From an uncultured Acholeplasmataceae bacterium (GTDB lineage: Bacteria; Bacillota_I; Bacilli_A; RF39; UBA660): 64,000 bases of DNA. Shown piece after piece: positions 5,888 through 52,771 of this stretch. Under the pieces are notes generated by a model, which made no database searches, was not told the origin of the DNA, and saw only the letters and a list, made by a program, of their open reading frames with translations. Position 1 is the stretch's first letter; each line of letters starts with the position of its first letter. The position numbers and the translations under genes were made by a program. The stretch spans positions 15,599-79,598 of the forward strand of contig CAJKWD010000001.1 of the NCBI GenBank assembly GCA_905203475.1, given 5' to 3'.

Positions 5888-5911
5888 AAATAGTCACTAA
5901 AAAGTGACTAT
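5888..5911 (-). terminator. Rho-independent terminator downstream of the XRE-membrane gene
   Basis: 9-bp inverted repeat aatagtcac/gtgactatt overlapping the stop codon, followed by a U-rich tract on the minus strand. Confidence 0.45.
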
Positions 5912-7446
5912 TCCTGTAATAATGATTCTAAATTTTGTTTATAACTATTCAACTTATCTTGGTATTCTGTTACTTTAGATTCTAATTCACTATTTTGTTC
6001 TTCTAATTTTGTATTTTCTTCTGTAACTTGATCTAATTGTTCCTGTAAAGATTCAATCTCTGACTGTTCTTCTACTTCCATTTCACGTTTGATTGAATTA
6101 TGATAATGATCTAATAAACGATTTATATTTTCTTCACTAGCATACACTGTTACATGATATTGATATAACTCTGAATAATTATATAAATGTTTTTCTTTTA
6201 AACCATCTATGAATAGAGATACTGCTTTTGAAACAAATACATTTTCTGGATTTTCTTCGCGAACAAAAACAAATCCATTATCATGAGATACGATATCTAC
6301 ACTTAAATATTCTGGGAAGTATTTAACCACAATTTTAACTTCATCACCAAGCGTATTATCTACCTTCATATCATAAAAATCTAGAGAATCAATTACCAAA
6401 GAATCAGACATTGCAATTTTCTTTTCAATTGTTTTTGCTTTTTCAGTAATTGGTGCTTTATCAGTATATGTAGTATTTACAAATTCTAACATAGTGATTC
6501 CAAAAGAAATTCCTAGGCCAATTAAAGATACGATTGTCAAAATAACTGTTCTTTTGATTGGTGTTTTACGATTAAATAGAAAGTTAAATAATAATTCTAG
6601 AATGAGTATGTGAAGAATTATAGCAAAAATAATTCCCAATAATATTCCAAAGTGAAATACTCCTTGGAATAATAAAATAAACATGACAATAAATGCTGCC
6701 GAGAATAGAAATAGAGAAAGGGCAAATGGACATATTAAAATAAAGAAAACCATGATTTTTATAAAGAAAATAGCAATTTTACCAAGAGCTTCAAAAAAGG
6801 CATAGCTTTTTTCCGGTCTTATTTCTTTCATGACCTTTTGCTCTGGTATCAGTTCTACATCCTTACTATTTTTTTCTGTACTAGTTGATACAGATTGAAA
6901 ATCATAGCGATCTAAATACATCATTTTAAATAAATAAACTAATAATATGATATATAAGATAAAGAAACTACCATTTAATAATAATTCAATTAAGCCTATT
7001 ACAAAATAGATAAATTGATTGCTTCCTAAAGTAAGAATTAAATTAGTTAAACGATTACTTAAAAAGTCAAATGGAATATATCCTATCTGTAGTATGATAG
7101 CAACAACAAACATCACAAAAAGACATTTTATGCTCTTTTTTAATCCCATTGTATGAAACATATGATAAGTCTTGTTCACAAGATCTAACATGCTATCAAT
7201 TAAGTTATTGATACTATTCTTTTTCTTTTCTCCTATTTTAATATCTGTAATCTCATCGTTTGTTAAATCATCTAGGCTGCATTTAAATATCTTACACATA
7301 GCAAGTAATTTATCCATTTCAGGATATGTTTGACCAGACTCCCATTTCGATACAGACTGTCTTGTCACATCTAATAAGTCAGCAAGTTTTTCTTGTGACA
7401 TCTTATTTGCTTTTCTCAAAGCTTGTAGTTTTTCACTAAAACTCAT
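5908..7446 (-). CDS. XRE-family HTH transcription regulator fused to a polytopic membrane domain and a C-terminal coiled-coil
   Basis: N-terminus LQALRKANKMSQEKLADLLDVTRQSVSKWESGQTYP is a Cro/C1-type HTH. It is followed by about 8 hydrophobic helices. The C-terminal 60 aa are heptad-like and E/Q/L-rich. Confidence 0.6.
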   Translation of the reverse strand: MSFSEKLQALRKANKMSQEKLADLLDVTRQSVSKWESGQTYPEMDKLLAMCKIFKCSLDDLTNDEITDIKIGEKKKNSINNLIDSMLDLVNKTYHMFHTMGLKKSIKCLFVMFVVAIILQIGYIPFDFLSNRLTNLILTLGSNQFIYFVIGLIELLLNGSFFILYIILLVYLFKMMYLDRYDFQSVSTSTEKNSKDVELIPEQKVMKEIRPEKSYAFFEALGKIAIFFIKIMVFFILICPFALSLFLFSAAFIVMFILLFQGVFHFGILLGIIFAIILHILILELLFNFLFNRKTPIKRTVILTIVSLIGLGISFGITMLEFVNTTYTDKAPITEKAKTIEKKIAMSDSLVIDSLDFYDMKVDNTLGDEVKIVVKYFPEYLSVDIVSHDNGFVFVREENPENVFVSKAVSLFIDGLKEKHLYNYSELYQYHVTVYASEENINRLLDHYHNSIKREMEVEEQSEIESLQEQLDQVTEENTKLEEQNSELESKVTEYQDKLNSYKQNLESLLQE

Positions 7447-7539
7447 TTTATCACCTCGTGATCATTTTATAATGTAACTCTGGTTGCATACTACCAATTT
7501 TCAGTTGTTTTTTGTTACTTTTTAGTTGCGATTTTATTT

Positions 7540-7577
7540 TTTAAAAGAAAAAGTGAATTTTAAATTGAAAATTCACT
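7540..7577 (-). terminator. Rho-independent terminator of the five-gene operon ending in the RluA gene
   Basis: 10-bp perfect stem agtgaatttt/aaaattcact overlapping the stop at 7560, followed on the minus strand by UUUUUCUUUU. Confidence 0.55.
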
Positions 7578-8240
7578 CCAAGGATAACGTTTCGGAAGTG
7601 GTAATGAAAAATACATCATTTCTTTTGTCGTTGGATGTTGAAATGTAATAGCATGTGAGAATAGAGCTATCTGTTGTCCTGGCTTAGCTTGTTTAGAATA
7701 TTTTTGATCACCAAATAAAGGATAACCATGATGAGAAAATTGAACACGAATTTGATGAGAGCGACCTGTTTTTAATTGGATTTTTACAAGACTCATATCT
7801 TTTTTATATTGTAAACATATAAAATCTAATATAGCCTGTTTTCCCTGTGGATGAACAGTTACAATGTTTCTTTTCTCATTCTTTAATAAATAATCTTCTA
7901 AGTGTCCTTGTTTTTCTATATTTCCTAAAACAACTGCATAATATTCTTTTTTAAACTGATGTGTTCTTACTTGTTCACTAAGACGGCTGGCTGCTTTAGA
8001 AGTTTTTGCAAATACCATTACTCCTCCAACTGGTCTATCTAAACGATGTACAAGCCCTAAATATACATTTCCTGGCTTCTGATATCTCTTTTTTAAATCA
8101 GCTTTTAACATCGTTAATAAATCTAAATCATGACTCTCATCAGCTTGGACTGGTATATTAATTGGCTTTTCAACAACTAATAAATGATTATCTTCATAAA
8201 TAACATTAATCTTTTGATTCATAACGTCCATATATACCAC
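7560..8240 (-). CDS. RluA-family pseudouridine synthase (no S4 domain)
   Basis: HRLDRPVGGVMVFAKT catalytic-Asp motif. Size is 226 aa. Alternative ATG starts exist at M4 and M7. The gene overlaps the upstream gene by 17-35 nt. Confidence 0.8.
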   Translation of the reverse strand: MVYMDVMNQKINVIYEDNHLLVVEKPINIPVQADESHDLDLLTMLKADLKKRYQKPGNVYLGLVHRLDRPVGGVMVFAKTSKAASRLSEQVRTHQFKKEYYAVVLGNIEKQGHLEDYLLKNEKRNIVTVHPQGKQAILDFICLQYKKDMSLVKIQLKTGRSHQIRVQFSHHGYPLFGDQKYSKQAKPGQQIALFSHAITFQHPTTKEMMYFSLPLPKRYPWSEFSI

Positions 8241-9078
8241 AAGGTAATACCAAATGATTTGTTTCTATTGGTAAACCTACTTCTCCTGTATCAATGATAC
8301 CTTCAGGATATTTCTTTAAAATAGTTGTTTTCAAAATATTTTCTAATACAGTACTACTAATACCAGTTGTATAAGAATTGATAAGCACAAACAAAGGTTT
8401 ATCAGATAATATCTTCATACATGCTTCAATTAAAACATAAATATTATCCTCAAACTTCCATACTTCTCCGTTTGGTCCTCTTCCATAACTTGGAGGATCC
8501 ATAATAATAACGTCATATTTACGTCCCCTTCGTGCTTCTCTTTCCACAAATTTTAAACAATCATCTACAATATAGCGAATATGATGATTTTCTAACCCTG
8601 ATAATTTGGCATTTTCTTTTGCCCATTGTACCATACCTTTAGCTGCATCTACGTGTACGACTTCTTCAGCACCGGCATAAGAACAAGCAATGGTTGCTCC
8701 TCCTGTATAGGCAAATAAATTTAATACTTTAATAGGACGATTAGCACGTTGAATCTTTTGAATCATATAATCCCAGTTGGTTGCTTGTTCCGGAAATAAA
8801 CCAGTATGTTTAAAATTAGTAGGGGTTACTTTAAATGATAAATCTTTATAATGAATCACCCAATAGTCGGGTAATTTACGATAAAACTTCCATTCTCCTC
8901 CACCTTTATGACTACGGTAATATCTTCCATCAACTCGATTCCATTTTTCATCTTTTTCTGTCTTCCATATTGCCTGAGGATCAGGTCTTCTCAGAACGAT
9001 ATCTCCCCATCTTTCTAATTTTTCTCCATTTCCGGCATCAATACAAACATAATCTTTCCATTCATTACTTACTCTCAT
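8206..9078 (-). CDS. Class I SAM-dependent RNA methyltransferase (COG1092 / RlmI-like, lacking PUA)
   Basis: FAYTGGATIACSYAGA SAM-binding motif I, and IIMDPPSYGRG motif IV. Size is 290 aa. Confidence 0.7.
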   Translation of the reverse strand: MRVSNEWKDYVCIDAGNGEKLERWGDIVLRRPDPQAIWKTEKDEKWNRVDGRYYRSHKGGGEWKFYRKLPDYWVIHYKDLSFKVTPTNFKHTGLFPEQATNWDYMIQKIQRANRPIKVLNLFAYTGGATIACSYAGAEEVVHVDAAKGMVQWAKENAKLSGLENHHIRYIVDDCLKFVEREARRGRKYDVIIMDPPSYGRGPNGEVWKFEDNIYVLIEACMKILSDKPLFVLINSYTTGISSTVLENILKTTILKKYPEGIIDTGEVGLPIETNHLVLPCGIYGRYESKD

Positions 9079-9085
9079 ATAATCC

Positions 9086-9454
9086 CTACGCTTTCTGAAA
9101 TTCTTTCTGTAATACCTCTAAATTTTCTTTGATAGTAGAAACTGCCAGTTCTCCTTTTAAAGTATCTGGAATTTCTGTCAATAAAGAATATTCTTCTAAC
9201 ATTTCTTTTTGCACTTCTTTTAAATCATGATGCAATAATTTTTCTTTTAATTGTTTCATATCATGCATCATAAATAAAAAATAACTCGCACAGATAAATT
9301 CTAATCTTTCTTGTTTTGTAATATCTTCAATTAATTCATAAGATTTATCAATCATATCAGAAAGTGCTTTTTCTTTTAATAGGGCACTTCCTTTATCTTC
9401 ATCGTGAATTAAATATTCTTTTAATTCTACTAAAATTGTCTCATTTTCTGTCAT
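9086..9454 (-). CDS. Hypothetical acidic helical protein, 122 aa
   Basis: Open frame with an AGGAG RBS 6 nt upstream. It starts 4 nt after the stop of the upstream gene. No recognisable motif. Confidence 0.5.
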   Translation of the reverse strand: MTENETILVELKEYLIHDEDKGSALLKEKALSDMIDKSYELIEDITKQERLEFICASYFLFMMHDMKQLKEKLLHHDLKEVQKEMLEEYSLLTEIPDTLKGELAVSTIKENLEVLQKEFQKA

Positions 9455-9457
9455 ATT

Positions 9458-10264
9458 TTACTCCTTTACTATATGTTTTATTTTTTGCTTCTTCTTAGTT
9501 AAACGATATGCTTGTTCTTCTATTCCCTGTTCTACAAATTGATTGATTAAAACATCATTGCTGCTATTATATTTTAACCATTGATAATACTGCATCTTCT
9601 CATGTTGTAAGCGTTTTGGTGTAACGACTGCCCAATAAGCAGAGCTCATACAAGTCACATCATGGTGAAACATTCCAAATAAATAAGATAGTTTTTCACG
9701 ATTATATAACTTTTTTTCATGCATTTCATAATCCATGTTATCGTAGAAAATCTCGTTTGGTAGTTGTGGATAATAACGTATTAAAAACATAAAATCAGCA
9801 AAAATTTCATCCTCTTTTTGATAATATTCTGGATACGCTCCTACCATTTCTTCCACCATAAATTCAACATATAATTCTTGTACTCTAGAAAGATATGTAT
9901 CGAGAACAGTTTCTGTATTTAATGTAGGTGATATGACCAAATTACGATTTTGATACATCCAATTATATGCATCATAATAAGAACTAGAAACCAACTGTGT
10001 TTCGTAAACATACCATAAATTATCCCCACTAAGAAAACCATAAACAGATTCAAAATAAGTATTAAAATCAGCAGTTGGATAATATTCGATTGCTTTAAAA
10101 AAATACTCTTTTAAAACATAACAAAATTCCTCTTGATACTGACATGTAGCGTTCATTACAAATTGTTTTTGCAATTGTAACCAATATTGATATAAATCTT
10201 CTTTACGATTTTGTGATAAAGAAACATTTAAACCATTTAATTCTTCCAAAAATTCTTGTCTCAT
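9458..10264 (-). CDS. Hypothetical soluble protein, 268 aa, rich in aromatic and acidic residues
   Basis: Its start ATG overlaps the stop of the AbiEi-like gene (ATGA). A GGAGG RBS is present. There is no nucleotidyltransferase GS..D.D motif and no HEPN Rx4-6H motif. Confidence 0.5.
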   Translation of the reverse strand: MRQEFLEELNGLNVSLSQNRKEDLYQYWLQLQKQFVMNATCQYQEEFCYVLKEYFFKAIEYYPTADFNTYFESVYGFLSGDNLWYVYETQLVSSSYYDAYNWMYQNRNLVISPTLNTETVLDTYLSRVQELYVEFMVEEMVGAYPEYYQKEDEIFADFMFLIRYYPQLPNEIFYDNMDYEMHEKKLYNREKLSYLFGMFHHDVTCMSSAYWAVVTPKRLQHEKMQYYQWLKYNSSNDVLINQFVEQGIEEQAYRLTKKKQKIKHIVKE

Positions 10265-10803
10265 AAAACCTCCGTCAAAATAACCTCCGTTATTTTCTTT
10301 TTACTCACAAATTGATTTAAATACCCCTTTAACTTTCTCATATCTATTATTTCAGGATGACGATGGTAATAGTTTTTTATTTCTTGATAATACTCTGGAT
10401 CTAACTTTTTACGATATCGAACTAATTCAATTAACATTCTTTCTTTATCATAAATAGGAATCCATGTATTATTGACTTGAATTTTAGTCACACCAATATC
10501 ATAAATAGCTGCATCCATAAAATATTGTTTAATCTGTGGATCGACAATGCGCCATGCCGGTTTTTTTGTCACAACAACATATTTATCAGGTCTTTTACTG
10601 GTCATTCCATGATAGAAAAAAGCACTTTCCAATGTAAAAATAACATTAGGATGTTTTACTAGAAAAGTAGATAACTCTGTTACATTACGGCGATTTGAAT
10701 AAACTCCTTTTTCAATTTTAAACATAATTCGCTGATCAACTAATCGTTCAATATCTTTATGAGCATAACCCTTTTTTTTCAAATCTGAATATTTATAAAG
10801 CAT
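10261..10803 (-). CDS. AbiEi-like antitoxin-family protein: N-terminal wHTH plus an AbiEi_3-like C-terminal domain
   Basis: YSDLKKKGYAHKDIERLVDQRIMFKIEKGVYSN resembles the AbiEi N-terminal wHTH, which ends in a GxY. IFTLESAFFYHGMTSKRPDKYVVV resembles the AbiEi C-domain. A strong AAAGGAGGGG RBS is present. Confidence 0.45.
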   Translation of the reverse strand: MLYKYSDLKKKGYAHKDIERLVDQRIMFKIEKGVYSNRRNVTELSTFLVKHPNVIFTLESAFFYHGMTSKRPDKYVVVTKKPAWRIVDPQIKQYFMDAAIYDIGVTKIQVNNTWIPIYDKERMLIELVRYRKKLDPEYYQEIKNYYHRHPEIIDMRKLKGYLNQFVSKKKITEVILTEVL

Positions 10804-10825
10804 ACCACCCCTCCTTTACACTTTT

Positions 10826-10854
10826 ATTATAACATAATTTAAAAATAAGTATAG
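10826..10854 (-). promoter_or_regulatory. Putative extended -10 promoter (TGtTATAAT) for the AbiEi-like operon
   Basis: On the minus strand: ctatac, 17 nt, TGtTATAAT, then a strong RBS. Divergent from the tgt promoter. Confidence 0.4.
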
Positions 10855-10873
10855 GTTTAGTTTAAAAGAAATT

Positions 10874-10902
10874 TCGACAAAATATTTATAATATGTTATA
10901 AT
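10874..10902 (+). promoter_or_regulatory. Putative sigma-A promoter of tgt
   Basis: TCGACA, 17 nt, TGtTATAAT. Confidence 0.45.
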
Positions 10903-10914
10903 GTACCAGTATTT

Positions 10915-12147
10915 ATGGGAGGGCATATGGCAGATTATAAAAATAACAACCAATTTTATTTTGAAGTAAAAAACAAAATACCAGGGAAACTAGGCCGTAC
11001 GGGGATTATTCATACCCCACATGGTGATATTGAGACACCAGCATTTATTGCCGTTGGAACAAGAGGAGAAGTACGTTTTGTGTCAATGAATGAACTAAAA
11101 GAAATACAAGCACAAGCAATGCTAAGTAATGGCTATCATCTTCGTAATGAATGCGAAAATATTAAAGAACATGGTGGTCTAGCAACTTGGTCTGGATGGA
11201 ATGGTCCCACTATAACAGATTCTGGAGGATTTCAAGTTATGTCTTTAGGATCAGGACTTGGTAAAGTAGTTAGTATGGATCGTGAACAAGAAGTTATTAA
11301 CACTGATCCAAAAGATAGATTAGCACGTGTTACAGAAGATGGTGTTTACTTCTATGATCCAATTTTACAAAAAGATGATTTTATTGGACCAGAAGAATCT
11401 ATGAAAATTCAATGTAATATTGGAGCAGATATTCACATGGCATTTGATGAATTAACGTCTCTTGCTGATAGCTATGAATATAATGTAGAAGCTTTAAAAA
11501 GAACAGAACGATGGGCTAAAAGAAGCTTAGAAGAACATAAAAAGCATTGTAACGATTTAGGATACCATCAAGCACTATATGGTGTTTTACAAGGTGGTAG
11601 ATGGGAAGATTTAAGACGTTCTACAGCCAAACATTTATCCAAAATGGATTTTGATGGATATGGACTAGGTGGAGCCTTCTTAAAAGAGGACCTAGGCGAA
11701 ATATTGAGATGGTGTTGTGAAGAATTACCAGAGAATAAACCTCGTCACTTATTAGGATTATCTAGACCAGATGATATTTTAATTGGTGCCGAAATGGGGG
11801 CAGATACATTTGATTGTGTAGCTCCAACAAGAGAAGCTAGACATGGACGAATCTATACAAAATATGGTAATATTAGGCTAGCAAAATATAAAGATAGTCT
11901 AGAAGTATTAGATAATCATTGTGATTGTCCTACTTGTAAAAGTGGAATTACGAGAAAAGAATTATGTCATTTGTATAAATCACATGACCCAGAAGAAAAA
12001 AGAAAATATTATAAACTAGCATCGATTCACAATTTACGATTCATATTAAGATTAACAGAAGAAATTAGAGATGCGATTAATAACAATTGTTTTGAAGAAT
12101 ATAAAAATAATTTTTTAAAAGATTATTATCATACAGACAAAAAATAA
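10915..12147 (+). CDS. tgt: Queuine tRNA-ribosyltransferase
   Basis: GRTGIIHTPHGDIETPAFIAVGT and the CDCPTCKSG...H zinc site. The start may be the second ATG at 10927, which has a GGAGGG RBS. Confidence 0.9.
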   Translation: MGGHMADYKNNNQFYFEVKNKIPGKLGRTGIIHTPHGDIETPAFIAVGTRGEVRFVSMNELKEIQAQAMLSNGYHLRNECENIKEHGGLATWSGWNGPTITDSGGFQVMSLGSGLGKVVSMDREQEVINTDPKDRLARVTEDGVYFYDPILQKDDFIGPEESMKIQCNIGADIHMAFDELTSLADSYEYNVEALKRTERWAKRSLEEHKKHCNDLGYHQALYGVLQGGRWEDLRRSTAKHLSKMDFDGYGLGGAFLKEDLGEILRWCCEELPENKPRHLLGLSRPDDILIGAEMGADTFDCVAPTREARHGRIYTKYGNIRLAKYKDSLEVLDNHCDCPTCKSGITRKELCHLYKSHDPEEKRKYYKLASIHNLRFILRLTEEIRDAINNNCFEEYKNNFLKDYYHTDKK

Positions 12148-12204
12148 GTATATATCCATTCGATATATACTTTTTTATAAGAAAAAAACTCCAATAAGAG
12201 TTTT
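12148..12204. terminator. Convergent terminator region between tgt(+) and rpsI(-)
   Basis: gtatatatc-cattc-gatatatac followed by T6 for tgt. aaaactc-caataa-gagtttt lies against the rpsI stop. Confidence 0.45.
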
Positions 12205-52544: not shown

Positions 52545-52771
52545 CCTCCTAAAAAAAATCACATCCTAATATAAGGACGTGAAATACGTGGTACCACCTT
52601 AATTCATAGTCGAAACTACCTCTAGTTGTTAACAGGCACTACCCGTATCATCCTACTTATCGAATCATCAACTCCAGAACCATTTCCAGCTATTTCCTTT
52701 TATTCATTTCCACCATACATGAACTCTCTTTAAAAAATACTTTAGCCTTTCTTTCTTTCAACGTTTTTACA
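52545..52771 (-). ncRNA. T-box riboswitch leader, Met-specific, upstream of dut-metG
   Basis: The minus-strand RNA contains an AGAGAG element and a candidate specifier loop GGAAAUGAAU with an AUG codon. It has the conserved T-box sequence AAUUAAGGUGGUACCACG. A terminator hairpin cacgucc-uuauauua-ggaugug is followed by U8. Confidence 0.75.

Follow-up and report, generated by a model that had tools for sequence, protein, structure and literature searches.

We analysed a 64,000-nucleotide stretch of DNA from an uncultured Acholeplasmataceae bacterium (contig CAJKWD010000001.1), referred to below as the window, and focused on a block of three minus-strand genes in it. The first codes for a homologue of AbiEi, the antitoxin of AbiE toxin-antitoxin (TA) or abortive infection (Abi) systems, and the next two code for proteins of 268 and 122 residues that we called p268 and p122. 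The block is very probably an AbiE-derived operon in which the AbiEi protein has been kept and the nucleotidyltransferase (NTase) toxin has been replaced by orphan helical proteins. Within a single clade of gut Bacilli it has very probably become a vertically inherited fixture, linked to an operon for RNA modification.

The identity of the first gene product is supported by several profile comparisons. The 180-residue protein matches the PADLOC AbiEi model PDLC02238 (5.3e-50, spanning 1-180 of 180) and scores barely above the gathering threshold of Pfam AbiEi_1 (24.1 bits, gathering score 22.2). A profile of its subfamily matches the Streptococcus agalactiae AbiEi structure 6Y8Q/9HLO (4e-20 over residues 17-192). 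An earlier reading of this DNA, made without database searches (hereafter the sequence-only reading), had proposed a two-domain AbiEi and pointed to a GVY and an FFYHGMTS motif. Both are present, the former as KGVYS, and the check that it suggested, a search with hidden Markov models (HMMs), was run and gave matches to AbiEi-family models, with no failure to match. Judging from these matches, the protein is a bona fide AbiEi, with a winged helix-turn-helix predicted at the N terminus, followed by the AbiEi C-terminal domain.

The cognate toxin, AbiEii (DUF1814), was not found. A tblastn search of the 64-kb window with the AbiEii partners of related AbiEi proteins returned nothing below E = 1, and neither p268, p122 nor any of 11 p268 orthologues matched PF08843 or the PADLOC AbiEii models. 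We also considered p268 as a divergent AbiEii and rejected this possibility. BLASTP comparisons with two cognate-type AbiEii proteins gave E >1, hhalign with an 11-sequence p268 profile returned a probability of 0.05%, and the Pfam and PDB profile searches were negative. The sequence-only reading had stated that the downstream partners are not DUF1814 proteins, and this held in the Pfam, PADLOC, BLASTP, hhalign and window tblastn analyses alike.

The relatives of this AbiEi protein outside the clade show what the locus may have lost. There are ~38 of them with the same size of 180 residues, at 33-45% identity, and we inspected four outgroup neighbourhoods (L004-6, L010, L007 and L104). All four have AbiEii in the same overlapping downstream slot, either as a full-length PF08843 protein of 270-271 residues next to AbiEi (L004/L005/L006 and L010) or in truncated form (L007 and L104). 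The surroundings are those of defence or mobile regions, with type I restriction-modification, helicase and serine recombinase genes. In the window, p268 occupies the slot of AbiEii, with the same 4-nt overlap and a near-equal length (266-268 vs 270-271 residues). The net charge of AbiEii is -4, and p268 and p122 are far more acidic. Since the nearest AbiEi relatives elsewhere carry AbiEii in the same overlapping slot, the toxin of the putative ancestral module is replaced here, or has diverged beyond recognition.

The two proteins found in its stead have no recognizable relatives beyond the clade. p268 is acidic (isoelectric point (pI) 4.9, net charge -13 to -19) and rich in aromatic residues (19% Phe, Trp and Tyr). 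AlphaFold 2 (AF2) predicts an all-helical protein with low overall confidence (mean predicted local distance difference test (pLDDT) score 54), of which the N-terminal 80 residues are modelled confidently (pLDDT 81-91). No significant match to p268 was found in Pfam, NCBIfam, PADLOC or PHROGs, Pfam being empty for the 11 orthologues as well, and the comparison with PDB sequence profiles was negative. When 1.84 billion representatives were searched exhaustively with an HMM, only its own 50%-identity cluster and fragments came up, and a word-indexed search retrieved four proteins. Direct reading of the p268 sequence agrees with the earlier statement that it contains neither a GS..D.D motif nor the HEPN-type R-x4-6-H motif. 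Only thirteen residues, most of them aromatic, are invariant across the 11 orthologues, which speaks for a role of p268 in binding or as a scaffold and against one in catalysis.

p122 is acidic as well (pI 4.7, net charge -7 to -12) and is predicted to form six helices. It has no significant match in Pfam, NCBIfam, PADLOC or PHROGs, and the fold searches performed with p268 and p122 returned generic helical matches only. A metagenome scan with a p122 profile yielded just four loci. The protein is present alongside AbiEi at every clade locus examined, with 48 invariant positions and the invariant motifs ER.EF.C.SYFLF.MHD and EIPDT.K. The invariant Cys55, His64 and Asp65, together with the EIPDT.K loop (residues 94-100) of lower model confidence, may bind a metal or ligand or may serve in an interaction. 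We also considered p122 as a paralogue of the p268 N terminus; hhalign was negative, and the two proteins are unrelated to each other.

The genes lie close together and are translationally coupled. The AbiEi stop and p268 start codons share an ATGA at 10264-10261, and the p268/p122 junction reads TAA(9460-9458)-AAT-ATG(9454), a 3-nt gap that puts the start of p122 at the fourth nucleotide past the p268 stop. GGAGG/AAGGAG ribosome-binding sites are found 5' of all three genes. This is the arrangement that the sequence-only reading had described, including the overlap, the p122 start 4 nt past the p268 stop and the presence of ribosome-binding sites. The same gene order with intact open reading frames (ORFs) is seen again in at least eight independent orthologous contigs, and the ratio of nonsynonymous to synonymous substitution rates (dN/dS) is <1 for each of the three when orthologous loci are compared. 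Thus, AbiEi, p268 and p122 are real genes.

The coupling extends past p122. A methyltransferase gene, whose product has partial NCBIfam matches to RlmK/L and RlmI, starts 7 nt from the p122 stop, and its end is overlapped by an RluA-family gene, the final member of the co-oriented array (Table 1). No terminator-like sites were found in 7400-11000. In two orthologous loci, L015 and L101, p122 overlaps the methyltransferase start by 4 nt. The methyltransferase is probably co-transcribed with p122.

Both p268 and p122 are confined to one clade of uncultured gut Bacilli, whose sequences come from human-gut metagenomes and metagenome-assembled genomes labelled Bacilli or Firmicutes. A methyltransferase scan of species-representative genomes gave 80 loci, only one of which (L017, 'uncultured Bacilli bacterium') carries AbiEi and p122. 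In the next-closest genomes, with methyltransferases 73-78% identical, rpsI is followed by the methyltransferase-rluA pair, and the interval between them is empty or holds unrelated cargo. Because these genomes hold nothing or other genes in the same place, the rpsI-methyltransferase interval is, judged by gene order, a variable slot, and the AbiEi block a lineage-specific insertion. The slot lies in the region 9079-12203 of the window and around coordinates 6500-8000 in L018-L030, and its cargo is diverse: L018 has none, L019/L021/L023/L025 have coiled-coil and transmembrane proteins of 251-260 residues, L020/L026/L030 have GDPD-like enzymes, L028 has an LDH-like enzyme, and L024/L029 have small membrane proteins. 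The end of the cargo gene usually lies <=10 nt from the methyltransferase start (~85 nt in L030).

All clade members carry the AbiEi block at one and the same place in the chromosome, and the gene trees are congruent with that of the methyltransferase; on this phylogenetic evidence the block is inherited vertically. Relatives of p268 and p122 are absent from the IMG/VR viral contigs and PLSDB plasmids, and AbiEi has distant matches only in these databases (<=32% identity). The sequence-only reading would have been refuted by a triplet universally conserved next to rluA as core genes with an assigned function. Only half of this applies: the triplet is conserved there in close relatives, but it is absent from the next-closest genomes and has no assigned function. 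The window itself is a leading-strand core region with ribosomal protein genes, truA, rplM and rpsI, in which nearly all genes lie on the minus strand and nearly every neighbouring gene pair abuts or overlaps, in an AT-rich, compact genome.

The genes of the array evolve at very different rates (Table 1). At equal dS, the dN of p268 is ~10 times that of its neighbours. As dS is similar across the genes, p268 evolves ~10 times faster in situ and does not reflect allelic import. p268 orthologues of only 20% identity are still collinear homologues (E = 8e-8). The C-terminal third of the protein is the most constrained part, with dN/dS of 0.03-0.14 vs 0.2-1.0 for the remainder. Positive selection in p268 was considered and not retained, as sliding-window dN/dS values are mostly <1 (0.03-1.1), with noisy peaks and no robust signal. 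The value of 0.76 obtained against L015 is unreliable, coming from a saturated alignment at 20% identity.

Table 1. Features of the AbiEi locus in the window. Identities compare each window protein with its orthologue at three loci of increasing distance; dN/dS ranges are drawn from every orthologous locus compared (alignable pairs for p268).
Feature	Position	Strand	Size	Description or best matches	Identity (%)	dN/dS
tgt	10915..12147	+		Queuine tRNA-ribosyltransferase; NCBIfam Tgt equivalog 343.9 bits (cut-off 306.75)		
Operon promoter block	10826..10864	-	39 nt	Extended -10 TGTTATAAT (TATAAT 10831-10826) preceded by AAACTAAACCTATACTTATTTTT		
AbiEi gene	10803..10261	-	180 aa		97/87/85	0.004-0.09
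p268 gene	10264..9458	-	268 aa		73/44/20	0.22-0.45
p122 gene	9454..9086	-	122 aa		87/80/66	0.04-0.29
SAM methyltransferase gene	8206..9078	-	290 aa	Class I, RlmI/RlmK-like RNA methyltransferase; Pfam Methyltrans_SAM 9.5e-18	97/89/86	0.015-0.07
RluA-family pseudouridine synthase gene	7560..8240	-		Overlaps methyltransferase 3' end; Pfam PseudoU_synth_2 3.2e-33, NCBIfam rluA_subfam 7e-55		

p268 is also the gene that is lost, AbiEi and p122 being intact at every locus seen. L017 and L100 have no p268, and their p122 starts 12 nt past the AbiEi stop. As both are nested inside the p268-bearing clade, the loss is a secondary deletion. In another strain lineage, on contigs of up to 23 kb, p268 is called as two products of 99 residues (7-104) and 160 residues (109-268), and the gene thus appears from the protein calls to be disrupted. 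Cluster and contig statistics suggest that the contigs with a split p268 also bear intact 180-residue AbiEi and 122-residue p122 proteins. Overall, p268 appears in truncated or split form as the proteins P0112/P0113/P0115/P0116, P0050 and P0051, with 99 plus 160 residues, 147 residues or, in a frameshifted form, 69 residues, some of them on ~23 kb contigs. This suggests recurrent pseudogenisation of p268 in several strain lineages.

AbiEi shows no acceleration on the branch to the lineage without p268 (dN ~0.033 vs 0.033-0.043 on sister branches). The L017-L100 comparison of AbiEi is too shallow for a strong test of constraint, and it is dominated by one 200-nt tract. This tract, L017:7301-7500, lies inside AbiEi and has 11 differences from L100, nearly all synonymous; elsewhere the two sequences show 0-3 mismatches per 200 nt. 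The pattern suggests a short recombination patch.

The AbiEi proteins of the clade have changed in a region known to contact the toxin. In S. agalactiae AbiEi, the loop residues D85-E86-I87 are collectively required for stable AbiEii binding and antitoxicity (bioRxiv 10.64898/2026.01.19.700257), and alignment to 9HLO shows that they correspond to the 'TDEIP' segment. The outgroup AbiEi proteins of the 180-residue subfamily captured by a pattern search all have D-x-[I/V]-P at this position (32/32). In contrast, the clade proteins have [S/D]-K-R-P (6/6; TSKRP in the window). The AbiEii-binding loop of AbiE, of the type TDx[I/V]P, is not preserved in the T[S/D]KRP loop of the clade. The clade proteins are also strongly basic, with net charges of +8 to +16 vs an outgroup median of +2 (pI 9.7 for the window protein), the positive charge having been gained in both domains. 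The loop and charge shifts coincide with the swap of partners and are consistent with re-targeting of AbiEi to acidic partners.

The region upstream of the operon is also conserved. The promoter block is near-invariant in nine orthologous loci, including L101, which lacks tgt, and the conserved sequence comprises AAACTAAACCTATACTTATTTTTAAATTATGTTATAAT, the extended -10 and then AAAGGAGG. Canonical AbiEi is known to bind 23-bp inverted repeats that span its own promoter (PMC3985639). The block at 10826-10864 is a candidate AbiEi operator. AbiEi shares a 111-nt divergent intergenic region with tgt, which has a promoter-like TCGACA-17-TATAAT with TG at 10874-10902. The -10 box of tgt (TGTTATAAT) is identical to that of AbiEi. 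A 21-nt inverted repeat (10826-10846/10882-10902, 86% complementary) pairs the two -10 regions. Because it falls on the -10 boxes of both divergent promoters, it does not constitute independent evidence for an operator and may just be two similar divergent promoters.

Very few genes of the window are on the plus strand; tgt is one of them, and it does not belong to the original insertion. The order in the deeper lineage L101 is rpsI, a 77-residue ORF, AbiEi, p263, p126 and the methyltransferase, without tgt, and no outgroup has tgt at this position. Its absence here from L101 and the outgroups indicates that it was translocated beside AbiEi within the clade. The 77-residue ORF of the tgt-less lineage (L101:145-378) separates the end of rpsI from the AbiEi promoter.

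The block could possibly code for a non-canonical TA or Abi system, or for a regulator and effector pair, as the sequence-only reading had suggested. The functional reading that we prefer is a TA-like effector/neutraliser module headed by AbiEi, although this is a tentative guess to which we give somewhat less than even chances. AbiEi would repress its own operon by acting on the conserved promoter block with the extended -10, and its strongly basic surface and remodelled T[S/D]KRP loop would bind the acidic partner or partners in place of the NTase. p268, in the toxin/effector position, would act, if at all, via stoichiometric binding rather than catalysis, and it would be a fast-evolving component that can be lost without harm. 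p122 would be the partner that stays constant, and the reason why selection on AbiEi persists. The repeated loss of p268, when AbiEi is never lost, is an asymmetry typical of toxin vs antitoxin. A bolder version, which we hold to be unlikely, is that the K-R loop and basic surface have re-targeted the AbiEi C-terminal domain from the DUF1814 NTase to new, non-enzymatic partners, founding an AbiE-derived TA or defence family. In such a family, p122 would be the conserved effector or partner, and p268 a fast-evolving, expendable sensor or specificity subunit engaged in an arms race.

Several observations weigh against a TA-like module, in particular one of the classical mobile type. The dN/dS of AbiEi is on par with those of tgt and the methyltransferase, i.e. 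at housekeeping level, in both of its domains, and inheritance has been strictly vertical over dS >1; both features are unusual for conflict modules. AbiEi has stayed intact, with no extra substitutions, after the loss of p268, and its function would therefore be independent of p268. The latter is, to judge from the losses, dispensable. No mobile-element context was detected at the locus, whereas a mobile or defence setting is typical, if not strictly defining, of AbiE, and the operon continues into RNA-modification genes. Both partners are acidic and helical, features that suggest an inhibitor or antitoxin more readily than a toxin. No clear catalytic signature was found in p268 or p122, in a check of invariant residues that was made on p268 and left out C55/H64/D65 of p122. 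A tight AbiEi-p268 interface is hard to picture, because p268 changes fast and AbiEi is nearly frozen. Finally, the structure model of p268 is of low confidence.

Much of this would fit the main alternative, in which domestication has turned AbiEi into an ordinary transcription factor of a clade-specific operon, p268-p122-methyltransferase-rluA, and possibly of tgt. The acidic proteins would be non-toxic co-factors, e.g. anti-repressors or DNA mimics titrating AbiEi, and no TA or defence activity would be left. The housekeeping-level constraint on both AbiEi domains, the strict one-locus vertical inheritance in small genomes and the array that runs without terminator-like sites into RNA-modification genes, with the 4-nt p122/methyltransferase overlap of L015/L101, all favour it. 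So do the retention of AbiEi and p122 once p268 is lost, the basic charge gained by both AbiEi domains, the lack of toxin-like features in p268 and p122, and the conserved promoter block. Nevertheless, the methyltransferase-rluA pair functions without AbiEi in sister genomes, so no ancestral need for such a regulator is evident. Moreover, an orphan, fast-evolving and recurrently lost gene such as p268 is more typical of conflict genes, and the examined relatives of this AbiEi subfamily are all TA components. On balance, we regard domestication as somewhat unlikely.

It is improbable that p268 is a direct descendant of AbiEii, i.e. a pseudo-nucleotidyltransferase that arose in situ through loss of the catalytic motifs and divergence past recognition, rather than a replacement of foreign origin. 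The slot, the 4-nt overlap and, nearly, the length are those of the AbiEii of related loci, and truncated or decaying AbiEii genes are common beside related AbiEi genes. Since p268 goes down to 20% identity within the clade, vs 86% for the methyltransferase, homology with AbiEii could have been erased. However, the hhalign probability is negligible and BLASTP is empty, and there are no remnants of NTase motifs I-III among the 13 invariant residues of p268. In AbiEii, the GG...DxD motif falls in the first 70 residues of the sequence. This N-terminal region is a beta-containing core of the polymerase-beta-type NTases. In contrast, AF2 gives only helices for p268, including its confidently modelled N-terminal 80 residues.

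We give just as little credence to the absence of any functional module, with p268 and p122 as weakly selected orphan genes of recent origin that lie by chance between an orphaned AbiEi and a methyltransferase operon: gene spacing is tight window-wide in this AT-rich compact genome, so that coupling could reflect genome compaction, the rpsI-methyltransferase slot takes unrelated cargo in sister genomes, and p268 is dispensable, but p122, with its low dN/dS and 48 invariant positions, is always with AbiEi across dS >1, p268 keeps an intact ORF of ~266 residues and a constrained C-terminal third over the same divergence, and the AbiEi changes specific to the clade affect the partner-contact loop and charge.

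Two further features of the window were recorded. A 512-residue protein is encoded just downstream of rluA (5908-7446, minus strand), with an N-terminal XRE-type helix-turn-helix, a C-terminal coiled coil and a hydrophobic middle region that, judged by eye, resembles several membrane segments. It is 87% identical in L097, 77% in L098 and 46% in L015/L101, and absent from L011/L013; its gene is, from these comparisons, a second fast-evolving, variably present gene adjoining the locus. A T-box leader (52570-52770, minus strand; Rfam RF00230, 108 bits), the sole Rfam match at gathering level in the window, precedes the minus-strand genes 52539-50481.

AbiE systems (AbiEi/AbiEii) are type IV, recently proposed type VII, TA and abortive infection systems known from Lactococcus pNP40 and S. 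agalactiae (Dy et al. 2014, PMC3985639; bioRxiv 10.64898/2026.01.19.700257). The locus described here resembles them in its full-length AbiEi as first gene, the next gene at a 4-nt overlap, and a conserved promoter region with a possible operator. In contrast, the DUF1814/AbiEii NTase is absent and two unrelated acidic helical proteins are present instead, the TDx[I/V]P of the contact loop is replaced by T[S/D]KRP, and AbiEi is much more basic. Furthermore, there are three cistrons, or five with the methyltransferase and rluA, where AbiE has two, and the locus is chromosomal, vertical and slow-evolving, whereas AbiE is found on mobile elements. Because it has an AbiEi but lacks AbiEii, the AbiE-type contact loop and a mobile context, the locus is not an AbiE system and should not be filed as such; two-gene rules of the PADLOC type would not call one. 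It would work like AbiE only in being an AbiEi-headed, tightly coupled operon.

The MenA/MenT modules of Mycobacterium tuberculosis combine COG5340-like antitoxins with DUF1814 toxins (PMC7450476, PMC11375011). They share with our locus the antitoxin of the AbiE-type superfamily pairing and chromosomal copies that persist in a lineage. However, MenT toxins have NTase activity, with which they modify the acceptor stems of tRNAs, and nothing NTase-like is present here. Similarities with other TA types are looser. Three-component TA operons with a separate regulator include omega-epsilon-zeta of pSM19035 and PaaR-PaaA-ParE. Like the AbiEi block, they have three tightly coupled genes, with a DNA-binding repressor first and a small acidic helical protein. 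The genes are of other sizes and in another order here, and we detected no zeta-kinase, ParE/RelE-type, HigB-type or other recognizable toxin fold, nor any sequence or fold match to three-component TA systems, including those of the TAC type with their chaperone. CbtA/YeeV are non-enzymatic type IV toxins. They would be the nearest functional analogy if p268 binds a cellular target rather than catalyses a reaction, although p268 is unrelated to them in sequence and structure.

AbiEi antitoxins are viewed as partners dedicated to DUF1814 nucleotidyltransferase toxins, and the literature that we searched contains no AbiEi/COG5340 protein with a partner other than DUF1814. Here, an AbiEi has long persisted under housekeeping-level constraint without a DUF1814 toxin, with its contact loop rewritten and two orphan acidic partners. 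The taxonomic reach of the finding, one clade of uncultured Bacilli, is narrow, and its general impact is limited for that reason. Should the partners be toxic or defensive, they would add a new class of effectors to the AbiE/MenAT superfamily and show a type IV/VII antitoxin that has swapped its partners. Otherwise, the locus would be a clean natural case of an antitoxin domesticated as a chromosomal regulator in the reduced genomes of gut commensals.

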